DNA of 12,662 bases, from the IMG/VR virus record IMGVR_UViG_3300000290_000191, one strand, 5' to 3'. Both the position numbers and the translations under genes were made by a program. The notes beneath the pieces were generated by a model. It had not been told where the DNA came from, searched no databases, and worked only from the letters and a program-made list of their open reading frames with translations. This document shows positions 2,688-12,424 of the stretch, piece by piece. This DNA comes from a virus. Lineage: Duplodnaviria > Heunggongvirae > Uroviricota > Caudoviricetes. Numbering within the stretch: position 1 is the first letter of the stretch; the number at the start of each line of letters is the position of its first letter.

Positions 2688-3250
2688 AAGCTGTGTGACG
2701 AAGTAACCACTCTTAACAGCATAACCAATTTTTTACGTACGTAAACTACTAAATGATATTTGTGAGAATGCCACCGAGTGTTCAAAACACCACCACAAAT
2801 ACATAAGAAAACTTCAACAAATAATCAGTTAATAATTTCCGATGTTATTTTTAGTTTGTTTAAATTAAGCTAAAGAATTATAGAGCACTTATAAATAAGT
2901 GCCATTAATATAAATTAGCTAATAGATTTATTTTTGTTCAGACAAGAGCCATGAATAGGATTAGATAGAAAAGGTTCAGATAAAAATAGAGATCTACTTC
3001 ACAAATTAAATGAGAAACTAAAACTTACATCTTGAAATAATCACATTGATTAGATGAATATTTATCGCGCAGTGACATCATTTTTTAATAATAGTTCAAA
3101 AAAANNNNNNNNNNNNNNNNNNNNNNNNNNNNNNNNNNNNNNNNNNNNNNNNNNNNNNNNNNNNNNNNNNNNNNNNNNNNNNNNNNNNNNNNNNNNNNNN
3201 NNNNNNNNNNNNNNNNNNNNNNNNNNNNNNNNNNNNNNNNATCAGTACTG

Positions 3251-4365
3251 ATGGCGATGTCTGCTCAGGCAGCTGAAATTTATAATAAAGACAGTAACAA
3301 GCTGGATCTATACGGGAAAGTTAATGCCAAGCACTACTTCTCCTCTAATGATGCAGATGATGGTGATACTACTTATGCCCGTCTTGGCTTCAAAGGTGAA
3401 ACCCAAATCAACGATCAACTGACTGGTTTCGGTCAGTGGGAATATGAATTCAAAGGCAACCGTGCTGAATCTCAAGGTTCTTCCAAAGACAAAACCCGTC
3501 TTGCATTTGCAGGCCTGAAATTTGGTGATTACGGCTCCATCGATTACGGCCGTAACTACGGTGTAGCATACGACATCGGTGCGTGGACTGACGTNNNNNN
3601 NNNNNNNNNNNNNNNNNNNNNNNNNNNNNNNNNNNNNNNNNNNNNNNNNNNNNNNNNNNNNNNNNNNNNNNNNNNNNNNNNNNNNNNNNNNNNNNNNNNN
3701 NNNNNNNNNNNNNNNNNNNNNNNNNNNNNCGCACTACTGGTGTTGCAACTTATCGTAACAACGACTTCTTTGGTCTGGTCGATGGCCTGAACTTTGCTGC
3801 TCAGTATCAGGGTAAAAATGACCGCACTGACGTAACTGAAGCCAATGGTGATGGTTTCGGTTTCTCCACTACTTATGAGTATGAAGGATTCGGCGTGGGT
3901 GCAACCTATGCTAAATCAGATCGCACTGACGGTCAGGTCGCCTATGGTAAGAGCAAATTCAATGCCTCCGGCAAAAATGCGGAAGTATGGGCTGCAGGCC
4001 TGAAATATGATGCGAACAATATCTATCTGGCTACCACATATTCTGAAACTCAGAATATGACCGTTTTTGGTAATAACCATATTGCAAACAAAGCACAAAA
4101 CTTTGAAGCAGTAGCACAATATCAGTTTGACTTCGGTCTGCGCCCATCTGTTGCTTACCTTCAGTCAAAAGGTAAAGACCTTGGTGTTCATGGTGACCGA
4201 GACTTAGTCAAGTATGTCGATGTCGGTGCTACTTACTACTTTAATAAAAACATGTCTACTTTTGTTGATTACAAAATCAACTTAATTGACGATAGTAAGT
4301 TTACCAAAACAGCTGGTATTGATACCGACGACATCGTCGCTGTAGGTCTGGTTTATCAGTTCTAA
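3251..4365 (+). CDS. nmpC: OmpC/NmpC/OmpD-family general porin (prophage-encoded); 5' end and signal peptide lie inside N-run 3105-3240, second N-run 3595-3729 inside the barrel
   Basis: Translation ...[32 protein letters not shown]...GFGQWEYEF...[30 protein letters not shown]...[30 protein letters not shown]...[21 protein letters not shown]...VAVGLVYQF with terminal Phe is a classical 16-strand porin; frame before and after the second N-run differs, so N-run length is not exact or the gene is disrupted. Confidence 0.88.
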
Positions 4366-5951: not shown

Positions 5952-6827
5952 TCAATGAACGGTATCGAGCAGCTTTAACAGCTCAGGGAATCGGGATTCG
6001 AAGAAATGCGGCTGCGTCTCGCGCGGATTTGCGGGACTGGTGATGTTCTTGCCGAACATGCAGCCTTTCGCTGTCAGCGACCAGAATTTTTTGATGTTGT
6101 TAATCGCGGTACGGCTGTATCGTTCGCGCTGCTCGACGATCCCCAGCTTCACCATCTGGTGATATGCCTGATTAGCTGTCAGGCGGATACCATACTGCTT
6201 CAGCAGTGCACTCAGTGACAGCGTGGGACGGCTTGAGCCATCAGGCGCGTCAGCAGGAGCATCAATGGCATAGCGCGGTGCCAGATTCGGTAAGCCAACA
6301 GCCTCCTGGAGTTTCTGACAGGCACCAAGCACTGAAGAGTTAGACAGGTTTAACTCCCGGCGCATAAAGTCCAGCAGAATCACGCCAGCCTGCATCTTGT
6401 CAGCAGCCTGCCCGGATAATTTTTCCGATGCGCTGGTTACCATATCGAAAGTACGGATCACCTTCAGATGGAATGACGGGCTGATCCACATTGCATAGGC
6501 ATACACCAGTTCTTTGCAGACATACGTCCCCTGGTTATTTCCGCCACGAATAACGTTAACTGGCTCTATATTGACCGAGTTGCAAATCTGCAACTCGCTT
6601 ATTAAACGTTCAGTTTGCTCANNNNNNNNNNNNNNNNNNNNNNNNNNNNNNNNNNNNNNNNNNNNNNNNNNNNNNNNNNNNNNNNNNNNNNNNNNNNNNN
6701 NNNNNNNNNNNNNNGCAGGCTTATGCTTATCCAGAGAACCGGCAGCCCTGTGCAGATCGTTCAGGCTGTAACGCCCATAAGCATCACGACGAACTTCAAT
6801 ACCATCAATGACCATCAGATTATTCAT
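5952..6827 (-). CDS. KilA-N domain protein (Roi / antirepressor-like DNA-binding protein), interrupted by N-run 6622-6714
   Basis: N-terminus [30 protein letters not shown] ... [28 protein letters not shown] resembles KilA-N domain; C-terminal half resembles phage antirepressor C domains; GAGGAG RBS 9 nt upstream of ATG 6827. Confidence 0.78.
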
Positions 6828-8441: not shown

Positions 8442-8502
8442 CCTCTGAAATTCAGAGGGATGATGCTACTTAAAATAGCAGAATGCAACTACTTAAAATA
8501 GA
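8442..8502. promoter_or_regulatory. OR-like divergent promoter/operator region between cro-like and cI-like genes
   Basis: Perfect 17-bp palindrome CCTCTGAA-A-TTCAGAGG (8442-8458) overlapping the cro RBS, plus two related near-palindromes GCTACTTAAAATAGC (8465-8479) and ACTACTTAAAATAGA (8488-8502) spaced 23 bp apart. Confidence 0.5.
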
Positions 8503-9244
8503 AATGACTAGCGTATGTGATGCGAGTAACCTTCTACCTATGGTAGAAGAACAGAAGTATCCAGATTTCGCCAAGAGACTAAACGAGCTAATGACAAACA
8601 AGGGAATTTCTGTCACCCAACTCAAAAGTCTTGTGGGCGTTACATATGAAATGGCGCGGCGATACACAATCGGCGCTGCGAAGCCTCGTGCCTCTGTCAT
8701 GAATAAACTTGCATTGGCTCTGGGGGTATCAGCTTCATATTTAGAATATGGTGTTGGCGAGAGAGAAGGATGTAAGGAAATGGCAAGCATCCCCAATCCA
8801 ACAAAACCCGATGTATACAGGATAGAAGTTTTGGATCTTAGCGTTAGCGCAGGACCTGGAACCTATATGCTTTCAGACTATGTTGATGTGCTCTACGCCA
8901 TTGAGTTCACAACAGAGCATGCCCGTTCTCTTTTCGGTAATCGTTCTCAAGATGATATTAAAGTTATGACTGTAAATGGCGACAGCATGTCCCCTACTCT
9001 AGTTTCCGGAGATCGACTGTTTGTCGACATTTCTGTTCGCAACTTCCAAACTGATGGTGTTTACTCTTTCGTTTATGGTAAGACGTTCCACGTTAAACGT
9101 CTACAAATGCAAGGCAACAAACTCGCCGTTCTTTCGGATAATCCAGCCTATGAGAAATGGTACATTGATGAGAAGTCCCAAGATCAACTTTATGTTATGG
9201 GCAAAGCATTGATACACGAATCAATTAAATACAACCGGCTTTAG
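8483..9244 (+). CDS. cI: CI-like prophage repressor: N-terminal HTH and C-terminal S24 (LexA-like) autopeptidase domain
   Basis: HTH-like LNELMTNKGISVTQLKSLVGVTYEMARRY; Ala-Gly candidate cleavage site in SVSAGPG; Ser nucleophile motif GDSMSP and Lys in HVKRL; start uncertain (8483, 8504 or 8540; none has a clear SD, consistent with a leaderless PRM-type transcript). Confidence 0.9.
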   Translation: MQLLKIEMTSVCDASNLLPMVEEQKYPDFAKRLNELMTNKGISVTQLKSLVGVTYEMARRYTIGAAKPRASVMNKLALALGVSASYLEYGVGEREGCKEMASIPNPTKPDVYRIEVLDLSVSAGPGTYMLSDYVDVLYAIEFTTEHARSLFGNRSQDDIKVMTVNGDSMSPTLVSGDRLFVDISVRNFQTDGVYSFVYGKTFHVKRLQMQGNKLAVLSDNPAYEKWYIDEKSQDQLYVMGKALIHESIKYNRL

Positions 9245-9414: not shown

Positions 9415-10491
9415 ATGACAAAATCAATTTGTTTTTTTAATCATAAAGGTGGGGTAAGTAAAACCACAACAACCTTCAATCTTGGATGGGCACTTGCGGA
9501 TGAAGGCAAGAAAGTATTGATGGTTGACCTTGATTCGCAATGTAATCTAACAGGAATGGTTCTTGGCTATGAAAAGATTGATGAGGGTTTAGATTCTTTT
9601 TATTCTAGCAGAGATAACTTAACTCTTGGACCTATTGTAGAATATTTGATTAATGGCGGACAACCTGAAGCATACCTTGAAAAAGAAACGGGAAAATTAC
9701 ACCCTACACTGCATGAAAACCTTCTGCTTCTTCCCGGACATTTAGATGTTTCGGACTTAGATTCACAGATAAGTGTTTCTCTAAAAATTGCTGCTGGTAT
9801 TCCTGCTACAAGAAATATACCAGGGAACCTGCCAAAAATATTACAGCTAATCGCCATGAAGAATAATATTGATTACATTCTTTATGATCTCAGCCCTAAT
9901 GTTGGAGGTTTAAATGAAGTAGTTCTCATGTCAAGTGACTATTTTATCGTACCTGTAGCTCCAGACTTTTTTTGCTGGCAAGCAATTCGCTCTCTCTCAA
10001 AAAATATACCTCGCTGGCACAAAGAATTAGCATTATTTAAAGAAAATAATGATGGTAACTCTTCACAATCAATTAAAAATGCACCGCAGTTTCTAGGTAT
10101 GATTCAGCAGAGATACAGGCCGCGTAAAGGAGCACCTGTAAAATCTTTCGAAAAATGGATGGCAGCTATCCGTGATGCTGTTGATTCGATCTTAGTGCCA
10201 AATCTAGAAAAAATTACCTGCATAATTCCACGAGATAAAGTGCAACATGCAATTAACAAAACAACAGTCAGTGGAGATTTATCAGCCTATGATCTTGCGC
10301 ATATTTCCGATTTCAACTCATTAATCGCAATAAGCCAACAACTAGCGACACCTGTTTTCTCCATCAGTGATCAGCAAATTCGCGATTCAGGGCAATTTGG
10401 GCATGCCTTAAATACAATGAAATCAAGCAGAGACGCCTTTAACGAACAATTTAAAGGGCTGGCTCAACGAGTTCTAGAACTTACAAAGTAA
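9415..10491 (+). CDS. Orphan ParA/MinD-family deviant Walker-A ATPase (358 aa) in the cI-downstream moron slot
   Basis: Deviant Walker A KGGVSKTT at residues 11-18, A-prime motif MVDLDSQCN, Walker B DYILYDLSP, and C-terminal region typical of ParA; no ParB-like gene or obvious centromere repeats adjacent; AT-rich relative to the phage backbone. Confidence 0.85.
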   Translation: MTKSICFFNHKGGVSKTTTTFNLGWALADEGKKVLMVDLDSQCNLTGMVLGYEKIDEGLDSFYSSRDNLTLGPIVEYLINGGQPEAYLEKETGKLHPTLHENLLLLPGHLDVSDLDSQISVSLKIAAGIPATRNIPGNLPKILQLIAMKNNIDYILYDLSPNVGGLNEVVLMSSDYFIVPVAPDFFCWQAIRSLSKNIPRWHKELALFKENNDGNSSQSIKNAPQFLGMIQQRYRPRKGAPVKSFEKWMAAIRDAVDSILVPNLEKITCIIPRDKVQHAINKTTVSGDLSAYDLAHISDFNSLIAISQQLATPVFSISDQQIRDSGQFGHALNTMKSSRDAFNEQFKGLAQRVLELTK

Positions 10492-10530: not shown

Positions 10531-10686
10531 TCTCCCTGATTAATCTCATAAAAAACTCCCTCCTCATAATTCACTATGCTCAATACCTACTCCAACTTCG
10601 TGCGATATTTTCAGTTTACAGCATAGTAAATCAGCAAAAACATTTAACTTTCAATTAATTATAGAAAAATCATAGACAACAACAAA

Positions 10687-10736
10687 TATCTACTTTTTGT
10701 TGTTGATTTTTGCTACTTTAAGTAGCAACATAATGT
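10687..10736 (+). promoter_or_regulatory. OL/PL-like operator-promoter candidate
   Basis: Perfect 15-bp palindrome GCTACTT-T-AAGTAGC (10712-10726), one mismatch from the OR site at 8465-8479, plus half-site TCTACTT (10689-10695) and a 10-bp inverted repeat CAACAACAAA/TTTGTTGTTG; -10-like CATAAT at 10729-10734; lies 2.2 kb from OR, bracketing cI and the ParA-like gene. Confidence 0.4.
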
Positions 10737-10817
10737 AAGCTATCACGGACAGGCAGGACGCCCACGAAGTAGCCGCCGGTGGCGTATGAATGACCGGATG
10801 ATTCGTTAGCAACAAAA

Positions 10818-10851
10818 AAGCGCCCTACAGGACGCTTAGCTCTTTAACAAT
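10818..10851 (+). promoter_or_regulatory. boxA-like antitermination element preceded by a short hairpin
   Basis: GCTCTTTAACAAT at 10839-10851 matches the rrn/nut boxA core GCTCTTTAACAA exactly; hairpin AAGCG/CGCTT (10818-10837) immediately upstream; 31 nt before ORF 10882. Confidence 0.4.
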
Positions 10852-10881
10852 CTTAGTATCCCCGTAACAAAAGAGGGTTCT

Positions 10882-11175
10882 ATGGTCATATTCTGTGCTT
10901 ACGTTCATCCTAATGGATTTTTTATCAGCACCAACCAACAAGACGAATTCTGGATTCTACTTAGTAAGCAGGTCGGATGGGGACGATTCTGTCTAATCCG
11001 ACCAGAATCAGAATTTACAGAGAATGGAGGGCTTTTTGAATTACGTGAAATACGTCCGGCAGATGGTCAAGCCCCTGACCAAGTAATCGAATCGTCAGCT
11101 GTTTTATGGCGTCGGCAGGAAGCGTTCGAAGCTGAGAGAGTAATTTCTTCTTATCTTCAGTCGTGGCAGAAGTAG
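10882..11175 (+). CDS. Hypothetical 97-aa protein, first ORF downstream of the PL-like/boxA region (not N-like in sequence)
   Basis: ORF with AGAGGG RBS 4 nt upstream; product lacks an arginine-rich motif; overlaps an antisense ORF (11015-11233), so the coding strand is unresolved. Confidence 0.38.
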   Translation: MVIFCAYVHPNGFFISTNQQDEFWILLSKQVGWGRFCLIRPESEFTENGGLFELREIRPADGQAPDQVIESSAVLWRRQEAFEAERVISSYLQSWQK

Positions 11176-11276: not shown

Positions 11277-11600
11277 TCAATTNNNNNNNNNNNNNNNNNN
11301 NNNNNNNNNNNNNNNNNNNNNNNNNNNNNNNNNNNNNNNNNNNNNNNNNNNNNNNNNNNNNNNNNNNNNNNNNNNNNNNNNNNNTTCAGGAATATTTATA
11401 TTTATGCCATCCAAGTAATAATCAAGAGCATTCTTAATCAAGCCATGTTCTTCGAGATAAATTAAGTTCGAAATTAGGACATTATCATCTCCAAATGCGT
11501 CACGAACAGACTGCAACGCATCATCAGAAATTTCATAAGGATGAGCATCATACAGTATTTGTAACAACTGCCTTTGTGCACTTCTATCAAATTTGTCCAT
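11277..11600 (-). CDS. Small hypothetical protein with winged-helix-like N-terminal region (DUF2513-like pattern), interrupted by N-run 11283-11384
   Basis: N-terminus MDKFDRSAQRQLLQILYDAHPYEISDDALQSVRDAFGDDNVLISNLIYLEEHGLIKNALDYYL has the L-x-x-L-x-E-x-G-L-I pattern of small wHTH proteins; GGTGA RBS 9 nt upstream of ATG 11600; the 3' end depends on the true gap length and may instead continue in the frame of ORF 11015-11233. Confidence 0.45.
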   Translation of the reverse strand: MDKFDRSAQRQLLQILYDAHPYEISDDALQSVRDAFGDDNVLISNLIYLEEHGLIKNALDYYLDGININIPEXXXXXXXXXXXXXXXXXXXXXXXXXXXXXXXXXXN

Positions 11601-11689
11601 CTTAAATAATCACCATGTTATTGGGGGTATCAAGATTAACCGAATCCTTGTTGTTGGGGAATAACCAGGTCCACCTCGCCTGATGTGGC

Positions 11690-12050
11690 TAAAAGCAGGC
11701 ACATAACAGCTAAGTATTTTCAACCAGAGAGAATCCTTAGCGTTGTGGTGAATGCGGCTCAGCGCACGCGGGTTAAGGTTGAGGCTGACAGTCGACCTTC
11801 TGTGGATACCCACCCGCCTGGTGTGCAACCTTCGCCAGGCACCGGGAGGCACCCGGCACCACAACAGCCACTGCTTTGGCGGTACCAGTTTGTACACTTG
11901 CTTCCGGCTGGCACCGCTCTTTTTACAAAACAGAGAAGAGCATCACCGGACGACGGGCTCATAACCCAATCCATCCGGGCGGCTGCCACCGCAGGTGTTC
12001 TTCTCTGTTTTGTGGAGAAACTAACCGACCTTGCAGGGTCGATATGATGA
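11690..12050. other. GC-rich (about 60 percent) structured noncoding island with boxA-like element and a 15-bp perfect inverted repeat
   Basis: Open in multiple frames on both strands but no translation looks protein-like; boxA-like GCTCTTTTTACAAAA (11916-11930); inverted repeat ACAAAACAGAGAAGA (11925-11939) / TCTTCTCTGTTTTGT (11999-13) flanking a 59-nt GC-rich loop; adjacent hairpins GCCTGG/CCAGGC and CCGGG/CCCGG. Confidence 0.35.
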
Positions 12051-12061
12051 GGAGCAGCAAA

Positions 12062-12424
12062 ATGGCTAGTGAACGCAGTACTGATGTGCAGGCATTTATC
12101 GGGGAGCTGGACGGCGGCGTATTTGAAACCAAAATCGGCGCAGTTCTAAGTGAAGTCGCTTCCGGTGTGATGAACACGAAAACCAAAGGGAAGGTCTCAC
12201 TCAATCTGGAAATCGAACCGTTTGATGAGAACCGTGTGAAAATCAAACACAAACTCTCATATGTTCGCCCAACTAACCGCGGGAAAATTTCCGAAGAAGA
12301 CACCACCGAAACGCCGATGTATGTCAATCGCGGTGGTCGCCTGACTATTCTGCAGGAAGACCAGGGACAATTACTGACTCTTGCCGGTGAACCTGACGGA
12401 AAACTCCGCGCAGCTGGTCGTTAA
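12062..12424 (+). CDS. Hypothetical phage early-region protein (120 aa), possibly YfdP-like
   Basis: Strong RBS GAGGAG 7 nt upstream of ATG 12062; protein-like composition MASERSTDVQAFIGELDGGVFETKIGAVLSEVASGVMNTKTKGKVSLNLEIEPFDENRVKIKH...; family assignment from memory only. Confidence 0.7.
   Translation: MASERSTDVQAFIGELDGGVFETKIGAVLSEVASGVMNTKTKGKVSLNLEIEPFDENRVKIKHKLSYVRPTNRGKISEEDTTETPMYVNRGGRLTILQEDQGQLLTLAGEPDGKLRAAGR

Follow-up and report, generated by a model that had tools for sequence, protein, structure and literature searches.

DicF is a classic prophage small RNA (sRNA) that controls cell division, metabolism and virulence of enterohaemorrhagic Escherichia coli. In the dicBF operon of the E. 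coli K-12 prophage Qin, where no internal promoter was detected, the 5' end of the 190-nucleotide (nt) form of DicF is made by RNase III and that of the 53-nt form by RNase E (10.1101/2023.04.14.536235). The 3' end results from Rho-independent termination or, in the case of the 72-nt form, from an RNase III cut of read-through RNA (PMC5069750, PMC9438474). STnc100 and PasD are abundant Hfq-bound sRNAs, described in a study that makes no mention of DicF (10.64898/2026.05.13.724894). Surveys of dicF in the papers examined covered only copies more than 99% identical to that of K-12, and the global RNase III maps examined only cite the DicF work of 1990. Here we analyzed a 12,662-nt stretch of phage DNA (IMG/VR record IMGVR_UViG_3300000290_000191; hereafter the window), which is a lambdoid prophage of the SfV / SfIV / mEp460 type, and within it an island rich in guanine and cytosine (GC) located at positions 11690-12050, just upstream of the gene yfdP. 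We propose, with a probability of about 0.6, that this island is the non-coding stretch of the prophage's early-left (PL-type) operon that specifies RNA, and that it is a diverged counterpart of the dicF locus found in the dicBF operon of Qin. Coordinates refer to the whole stretch, and the modules of the island, all on the plus strand, are a hairpin (P0), a multi-hairpin domain (D1), a DicF-like unit (T1) and a second structured domain (D2) (Table 1). The comparison drew on 31 loci retrieved via YfdP from genomes representative of their species, together with 80 loci of IMG/VR and several records of phages.

The island specifies a conserved structured RNA

An initial annotation had described a structured noncoding island of roughly 60% GC between AT-rich flanks. 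The contrast in composition holds, the figure being slightly too high: GC content is 54.8% over the island and 58.8% in its core (11742-12018), against 37.7% in the 2.3 kilobases (kb) upstream and 44.4% in the downstream yfdP and yfdQ genes. The perfect inverted repeat of 15 base pairs (bp) enclosing 59 nt that it reported is present (11925-11939 and 11999-12013) and widens to 25-nt arms that are 84% complementary; when the region was shuffled 200 times, perfect inverted repeats reached a mean maximal length of 7.3 and were never longer than 11. Folding of 11690-12062 gave -156 kcal/mol on the plus strand (z = -5.6 against dinucleotide shuffles) and a z of -3.4 on the minus strand. Several open reading frames (ORFs) cover the island on both strands (for example 11685-12047, of 120 amino acids (aa), and 11752-11964 on the plus strand, and 11610-11897 on the minus strand), and none is kept open across the homologous loci of other genera. 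The island is a conserved element with related loci in many genera, and the earlier view of a structured noncoding RNA rather than coding DNA is borne out. Of 5426 complete E. coli genomes, 2861 hold a match to positions 11600-12100, and in 1316 the match spans at least 80% of the query.

Among the checks that had been suggested for the island were covariation analysis and an Rfam/Infernal search. The first, run across many Enterobacterales genera, gave strong support for D2; the second gave no match in the window at gathering thresholds, together with a sub-threshold match to STnc100 described below. Over 21 distinct cross-genus sequences, 97.9% of the cells assigned to D2 pairs were able to pair, against 46-56% when partners were slid, and 13 compensatory pairs were counted against 0-4 in the slid controls; none of 500 shuffles reached the real values. 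The long helix of D2, P1, was paired in 99.4% of cells over the same sequences and provides the at least about 20 bp of double-stranded RNA of an RNase III site. A covariance model of D2 (R2) scored 155 bits on the plus strand and 35 bits on the minus strand, and the invariant G.U pairs of D2 would become A.C mismatches on the opposite strand; from this asymmetry and these pairs, D2 was assigned to the plus strand.

D2 occurs once per locus and always adjoins the next gene, usually yfdP-like and occasionally rdgC-like. A run of T lies directly upstream in 94 of the 95 IMG/VR loci carrying the D2 core, and the D1 class located further upstream varies freely. In Providencia, the apical part of D2 is swapped for a plain long hairpin and the long helix is kept. 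Searches with R2 did not detect D2 in Qin, in HK022 or in the rest of the phage carrying Stx2c (Stx2c phage), and D2 has no Rfam match. These results indicated that D2 is a covariation-supported RNA fold, unannotated or called as spurious ORFs in the RefSeq and phage records examined.

Comparison with the DicF locus and with STnc100

T1 carries a sequence signature expected of an intrinsic terminator. A GC stem of 10-14 bp followed by U5-8 was found at this place in every genus compared, and its pairing was kept in 83% of cells, against 34-61% in slid controls. When the T1 copy of Leclercia (L018) was compared with the Rfam DicF model (RF00039), it scored 28.4 bits, below the gathering threshold of 48. 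A covariance model (R1) was then made of 19 T1 sequences, K-12 DicF being left out. R1 recovered the annotated K-12 dicF of the Qin locus (L120) end to end, at 2881-2940, with 18 bits and an E value of about 0.03, and in 89 kb its only other matches were T1 of the window and the near-identical copy of the Stx2c phage. The alignment of T1 with dicF showed the common sequence UUUGGCGGUAYCAGUUU...CCGCYCUUUUU, the GC stem and the U-tract.

D1 occupies the position of the 5' domain of the 190-nt DicF in K-12 Qin. One of its sequence classes (class C), which precedes T1 in IMG/VR loci, hardly differs from the stretch that adjoins K-12 dicF on the 5' side. Against the Rfam STnc100 model (RF02076), D1 of the window scored 35.6 bits (gathering threshold 47; E = 4.2e-6; model positions 31-147 of 206). 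The cmscan alignment and minimum free energy (MFE) folds, set beside a true STnc100, showed the core layout of STnc100 in D1: a closing stem, AAU, hairpins, and CCGGGAGGCACCCGG beside the 3' strand. The interior of D1 of the window folds into five hairpins, the last of which (11842-11856, with CCGGGAGGCACCCGG) adjoins the closing stem. At least six sequence classes share this stem and the overall layout, with compensatory changes in five of the eight stem pairs. Since the interiors could not be aligned between classes (MAFFT and RNAalifold supported the closing stem alone), no family-wide claim is made on their structure. The slot occupied by D1 can also be empty, and it holds a tRNA-like gene in Phytobacter and a csrA gene in Providencia.

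Upstream of D1, P0 comprises 18 bp in total, with GCUAAG/CUUAGC as inner stem. Helices of the CAYAAC...GUUGUG type, of 18-36 bp and with unrelated inner sequences, were found in SfV, Qin, L018, L020, L023, L026 and L030 (five other genera). Since GUUGUG serves both P0 and the closing stem of D1, the two are mutually exclusive. P0 is a candidate RNase III site, and by analogy with Qin its cleavage would give the long RNA its 5' end. When ends were placed from the reported RNA lengths, that of the 190-nt DicF at the 5' side fell in the 3' strand of the Qin P0, and the RNase III-made 3' end of the 72-nt form fell in the 5' strand of a long helix following the terminator, which is where D2 lies in the window. 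T1 shares with dicF the early-left location after the immunity region and the preceding long-form 5' domain, and the published mapping of DicF fits the layout found at this locus. These comparisons established the structures of the island, their strand, conservation and covariation, as well as its homology and synteny with DicF and STnc100.

Several observations weigh against this assignment. The Rfam DicF model gave no match on 11550-12150 even at E <= 10, and the homology to DicF seen with R1 is specific but weak in score and E value. T1 is without the 5' 13 nt of DicF (seed UUUCUGGUGACG). The predicted duplex of T1 with the -60 to +30 region of ftsZ has an energy of -24.8 kcal/mol, compared with a mean of -31.4 for shuffled sequences and -38.5 for DicF; pairing of T1 with ftsZ was consequently rejected, its complementarity being no better than shuffled, and T1 may differ from DicF in its action. 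The entire element has been lost from CPS-53 of K-12. D2 probably does more than provide an RNase III site, because its near-invariant P2 loop is superfluous for cleavage. Finally, a minus-strand gene lies between the inferred PL and the island, which makes the true promoter uncertain.

Proposed expression and processing of the island RNA

In the proposed scheme, transcription would enter from a repressor-controlled promoter about 1 kb upstream, and the nascent RNA would first form the P0 helix (CAUAAC...GUUGUG). Cleavage of P0 by RNase III would release GUUGUGGUG, which could then close D1. A large share of transcripts would stop at the hairpin and U-tract of T1, giving an RNA of about 185 nt comprising D1 and T1 that may be trimmed to a DicF-like sRNA of about 60 nt. 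Read-through transcripts would fold the 23-bp P1 of D2, U-tract included, and cleavage of P1 by RNase III would part the sRNA from the yfdP messenger RNA (mRNA), leaving the latter with a 5' leader made of GGAGAAACUAAC, P4 and the Shine-Dalgarno (SD) sequence. Cleavage at P0 and P1 is predicted from the analogous sites that have been mapped in Qin (10.1101/2023.04.14.536235; PMC5069750). Along the same line we infer termination at T1, the processing steps, Hfq binding and regulation of targets.

Prophage context and other features of the locus

On the plus strand, the genes follow the order cI-like S24 repressor, ParA-like gene, a 460-bp stretch without annotated gene that precedes yfdP, then yfdP, yfdQ and yfdR, and finally int (Table 1).

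Table 1. Positions and basis of the features described in the window
Feature	Positions	Strand	Details
Presumed right operator (OR)	two copies in 8464-8503		17-bp palindromic operator TGCTACTTAAAATAGCA; between cro-like and cI-like genes
Presumed left operator (OL)	10711-10727		third copy of TGCTACTTAAAATAGCA, about 2.2 kb downstream of the OR copies
Inferred OL and PL	10686-10742	+	TTGATT-17-CAACAT, start near 10742; by analogy with the right promoter (PR)
Small hairpin CCACC-UCGCCUGAU-GUGG	11671-11688	+	by eye, in E. coli, Kosakonia, Mangrovibacter and Providencia loci
P0 extended hairpin	11702-11748	+	folds; CAUAAC 11702-11707 with GUUGUG 11743-11748
D1 multi-hairpin domain	11742-11865	+	MFE fold; closed by GUUGUGGUG (11742-11750) and CACCACAAC (11857-11865)
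T1 DicF-like unit	11866-11924	+	linker; hairpin GGCGGUACCAG 11878-11888 / CUGGCACCGCU 11908-11918; CUUUUU 11919-11924
D2	11920-12018	+	RNAalifold and pair counts; helix P1 capped by P2 and P3
P1	11920-11944 with 11994-12018	+	23 pairs, U-tract:GGAGA pairs included
P2	about 11946-11979	+	near-invariant loop bases GGGCUCAUAACCCAAUCC
P3 variable hairpin	11980-11993	+	
Conserved GGAGAAACUAAC	12014-12025	+	alignment; followed by P4
P4 small covarying hairpin	12026-12041	+	98.8% paired; G-C to A-U changes
yfdP	12049-12424	+	SD GAGGAG 12049-12054, ATG 12062, 120 aa; first gene after the island

We infer PL at about 10706-10734 on the plus strand, reading toward the island and by analogy its likely source of transcription, because the operator recurs there within an inverted copy (10686-10731) of the OR segment 8460-8505. 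The island is located about 1 kb downstream of this promoter. In the Stx2c phage, other operators and a TTGACA-18-TACATT promoter stand only about 15 nt from the same RNA domain; in the relatives from Enterobacter and Kosakonia, their version of the domain comes right after a PL leader of 60 nt that is conserved. These two arrangements support the island being part of the PL transcript. A sigma-70 promoter scan revealed no plus-strand promoter directly upstream of D1, and a sigma-54-like GGCAC motif was rejected since its spacing is wrong and it is better read as the 5' strand of P0. The small hairpin at 11671-11688 may not belong to the RNA.

Other elements were noticed in the region between the repressor gene and the island. 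The gene for the ParA/MinD-type ATPase (9415-10491) lies directly downstream of the cI-like repressor gene, the position of rexAB in lambda. Right after PL starts a 60-nt element (10746-10805) with a covarying hairpin (CCGGU/ACCGG, CCUGG/CCAGG, CCCCA/UGGGG, CCGAU/AUCGG), with 80-96% conservation among phages of Escherichia, Salmonella, Klebsiella, Yersinia, Pectobacterium, Pantoea, Aeromonas and Providencia; the immunity-specific operators ahead of it are of many different kinds, and most of the records listed give it no RNA annotation. A canonical boxA, GCTCTTTAACAA (10841-10852), stands right after a GC hairpin (10818-10837) and about 100 nt past the inferred PL start. This order of hairpin and boxA is that of the leaders of rrn operons; the two are found together again in many related loci as well as in phages of Klebsiella, and the hairpin, read on the minus strand, also resembles a terminator. 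A 97-aa ORF with a good SD sequence (10882-11175) starts 30 nt after the boxA, where lambda has N; it is unannotated in RefSeq and overlaps the 3' end of the convergent gene, and neither an arginine-rich motif nor a Pfam, PHROG or NCBIfam match was found in it. The window contains six masked runs of N (1150-1198, 2023-2211, 3105-3240, 3595-3729, 6622-6714 and 11283-11384), the last one falling within the hypothetical gene on the minus strand that lies just ahead of the island. In the Stx2c, mEp460 and SfV phages, Rfam matches to C4 antisense RNA and isrK were found near an antirepressor gene (L003 653-841, L004 351-539, L005 226-414); neither is present in the window.

Some variants of the modules were also recorded. 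The T1 loops of L010, L020, L026, L029, L030, L032, L033 and L034 carry a 25-30-nt insertion with conserved GATAATGTTCTG, preceded by sequence resembling GGAGG..ATG; possible readings are a -10-like box, a mini-ORF or additional structure. The Phytobacter ursingii slot holds a 79-nt tRNA-Ile(AAU)-like gene (L022 2222-2300; L027 1186-1264), the acceptor stem of which is the D1 closing stem (UGUGGCG/CGCCGCA). The Providencia loci L032 and L034 encode a CsrA homologue (Pfam CsrA, E = 1.5e-25) about 150-330 nt ahead of the yfdP homologue; its gene is flanked by the conserved upstream hairpin on one side and T1 on the other, and the motif GUGGAGUAAU precedes both csrA and the yfdP homologue. The conserved GGAGAAACUAAC shares 9 nt (GAGAAACUA) with the translation start of E. 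coli ftsZ (GGAGAGAAACUAUG), the classic target of DicF; this was noticed post hoc and may be due to chance. The name yfdP was taken from the RefSeq annotation of a 99.6% identical locus; its product matches PHROG 204 (unknown function), and no Pfam, NCBIfam or PDB relative of YfdP was found.

Alternative explanations

A first alternative, which we consider rather unlikely, is that D2 serves mainly as a regulatory element of the yfdP 5' untranslated region (UTR), or that a third sRNA is excised from its helix, so that more than a processing site would be involved. In the UTR, D2 would be bound by a protein (CsrA of the host, YfdP itself or some other factor of the phage) or by a small ligand, and would so control translation. 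The near-invariant loop bases GGGCUCAUAACCCAAUCC of P2 and the 3' flank GGAGAAACUAAC, kept across genera, would suit this reading; two GGA motifs exist, at 12015-12017 and within the SD sequence, the Providencia relatives encode their CsrA homologue in the same leader, and D2 is always next to the start of a gene, be it yfdP or, sometimes, an rdgC-like one. However, no alternative pairing or expression platform was found, nor any match to an Rfam riboswitch, and in Providencia the apical part gives way to a plain long hairpin, the long helix being kept. The terminator, moreover, lies upstream of D2 and is therefore beyond its control. Regulation by D2 is compatible with the RNase III model, and the two are not exclusive.

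A bolder joint proposal, that D2 is a new structured-RNA class with its own function and that the D1 slot is a hypervariable RNA cassette, is doubtful. In its first part, a long helix and three-way junction with the invariant loop CUCAUAACCCAAUCC would act in prophage early-left operons across Enterobacterales, for example as a protein- or ligand-binding regulator or as an excised sRNA. In its second part, a cassette held between fixed stems would be released by an RNase III-triggered stem swap in which CAYAAC and CACAAC compete for GUUGUG. If true, the D1 cargo (unrelated structured RNAs, a tRNA, a csrA gene) could consist of early-expressed functions for host manipulation or anti-defence.

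It is improbable that D1 is a swappable tRNA-like RNA cassette acting alone, for example as a decoy, an anti-defence RNA or a processing signal for RNase P or RNase E, rather than being only the 5' portion of a precursor of DicF. The tRNA-Ile(AAU)-like gene of Phytobacter occupies the same slot with the same stem, the closing stem of D1 is acceptor-like and has a 5-bp hairpin that stacks immediately onto its 3' strand, many sequence classes are found at this one position, and STnc100 and PasD, to which D1 is related, count among the abundant sRNAs bound by Hfq (10.64898/2026.05.13.724894). On the other hand, ARAGORN detected no tRNA or transfer-messenger RNA in the window, D1 shows no T-loop or CCA-like features, and the unalignable interiors mean that a function common to the classes is not demonstrable.

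Still less probable is a leader for processive antitermination of the nut or put kind, in which the RNA of D1 or D2 together with a boxA-like string would modify RNA polymerase for terminator read-through. The early-left position ahead of a long operon ending in int, the location of D1 upstream of terminator T1 and the fact that no N-like gene was recognized would suit such a leader. The boxA-like element of the initial annotation exists as the string CGCTCTTTTTACAA at 11915-11928, but it corresponds to the 3' arm and U-tract of T1 and is not conserved as a boxA: homologues keep at this position only the stem complement and the T-run (CCGCAATTTTTTAC, CCGCCCCTTTTTAC, CCGTCCTTTTTAC), and the resemblance is therefore regarded as coincidental. 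The string leads into the 23-bp helix, no boxB-type hairpin accompanies it, and the canonical boxA is located elsewhere, at 10841-10852. D1 exists in at least six unrelated sequence classes and can be absent or replaced by a tRNA or csrA gene; D2 is single-copy, and neither the rightward part of the window nor the remainder of the Stx2c phage searched (L119) contains another. YfdP, examined for an N-type protein, showed no arginine-rich motif by eye and no Pfam match. A lambda-type nut site was rejected because the boxA is not conserved and there is no boxB, N-like protein or second copy in the window. An HK022-type put RNA was also rejected: no similarity was found in HK022 24.5-30.1 kb (PL/PR region, all E > 0.1) or in the annotated putL of HK639, the element is single-copy, and it stands about 1 kb from PL rather than just after it. 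A retron was discarded since no reverse transcriptase domain occurs among the neighbours (yfdP, yfdQ, yfdR and a hypothetical gene). Among the RNA types that had been put forward, an sRNA fits in part, and signatures of nut, put and retron elements were not found.

Finally, a decayed or unrecognized protein-coding gene, or a DNA-level site for recombination or protein binding, is hardly credible: long frames are open on both strands, hypothetical proteins are annotated here in some phage records and PHROG 33599 matches part of the 120-aa ORF, but no frame stays open across genera or has a Pfam match, the substitutions compensate within RNA pairs, the G.U pairs are invariant, the scores of 155 and 35 bits separate the strands, and the PHROG match is limited to the nucleotide-conserved D2 and most likely derives from propagated ORF calls. 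The gene relic envisaged in the initial annotation is discarded on the same grounds of frame and compensation.

Significance of the locus

The locus is a genuine structured RNA region and a variant of the DicF / STnc100 kind; one of its modules, D2, has strong comparative support and no Rfam family. It suggests that the DicF scaffold is far more widespread and variable than the Rfam model captures, and it links three things that the papers examined treat separately: the domain at the 5' side of long DicF, the family of STnc100 and PasD, and the swappable cassette that follows PL. As far as the literature examined shows, Faubladier and Bouche (1994) on dicF-like prophage sequences not being covered, the links between DicF, STnc100 and the cassette are apparently unreported. 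In practical terms, ORF calls over this region should be removed from phage genomes, and studies of sRNA targets in pathogenic E. coli and Shigella should take in the island RNA.

Comparison with known systems

RNase III processing hairpins are known from phage early transcripts, such as the N leader of lambda and the early sites of T7. D2 resembles them in its perfect helix of at least 20 bp, which has an RNA upstream of it and, on the other side, the ribosome-binding site of the operon's first gene. It differs in that a conserved three-way junction with invariant loop bases caps the helix, and in that cleavage is here predicted. With put and nut sites, the island shares the condition of a structured RNA in the early-left leader of a lambdoid phage without a recognizable N gene; it differs from them in sequence, size and architecture, in being single-copy and in its non-conserved boxA-like string.

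The likeness to STnc100 and PasD resides in D1, with its closing stem UGGUG...CACCA, AAU, several hairpins and CCGGGAGGCACCCGG at the 3' strand, and in the terminator following this core. The score of D1 remains below the gathering threshold, and its middle hairpins are unrelated to those of STnc100 and PasD. The locations also differ: STnc100 is part of the late operon and lies downstream of stx2, at L119 20389-20600 in the same Stx2c phage, whereas D1 follows PL.

The DicF locus differs from the island as follows. T1 is without the first 13 nt, the end with which DicF pairs to xylR. The loop and 3' arm of T1 diverge, T1 has no complementarity to ftsZ, and the Rfam model misses it. The next gene is yfdP here and dicB in Qin. 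The module placed downstream is D2, in contrast to a second D1-like domain in Qin. This Qin domain (L120 2953-3086), between dicF and the SD sequence of dicB, is unannotated in MG1655; its 5' part (GUGGUGAAUGCGGCUGAGCGCACGCGG) is common to D1 of the window, and a long closing helix appears in its MFE fold. Other features are common to the two loci. Both are placed in a repressor-controlled early-left operon of a lambdoid prophage, and both have a P0 hairpin and a D1-type domain of about 125 nt upstream, which in Qin belongs to the 190-nt long form. Both contain the core UUUGGCGGUAYCAGUUU followed by a GC hairpin and a U-tract, and both present a long helix just before the SD sequence of the next gene, that of Qin carrying the RNase III site of the 72-nt form.

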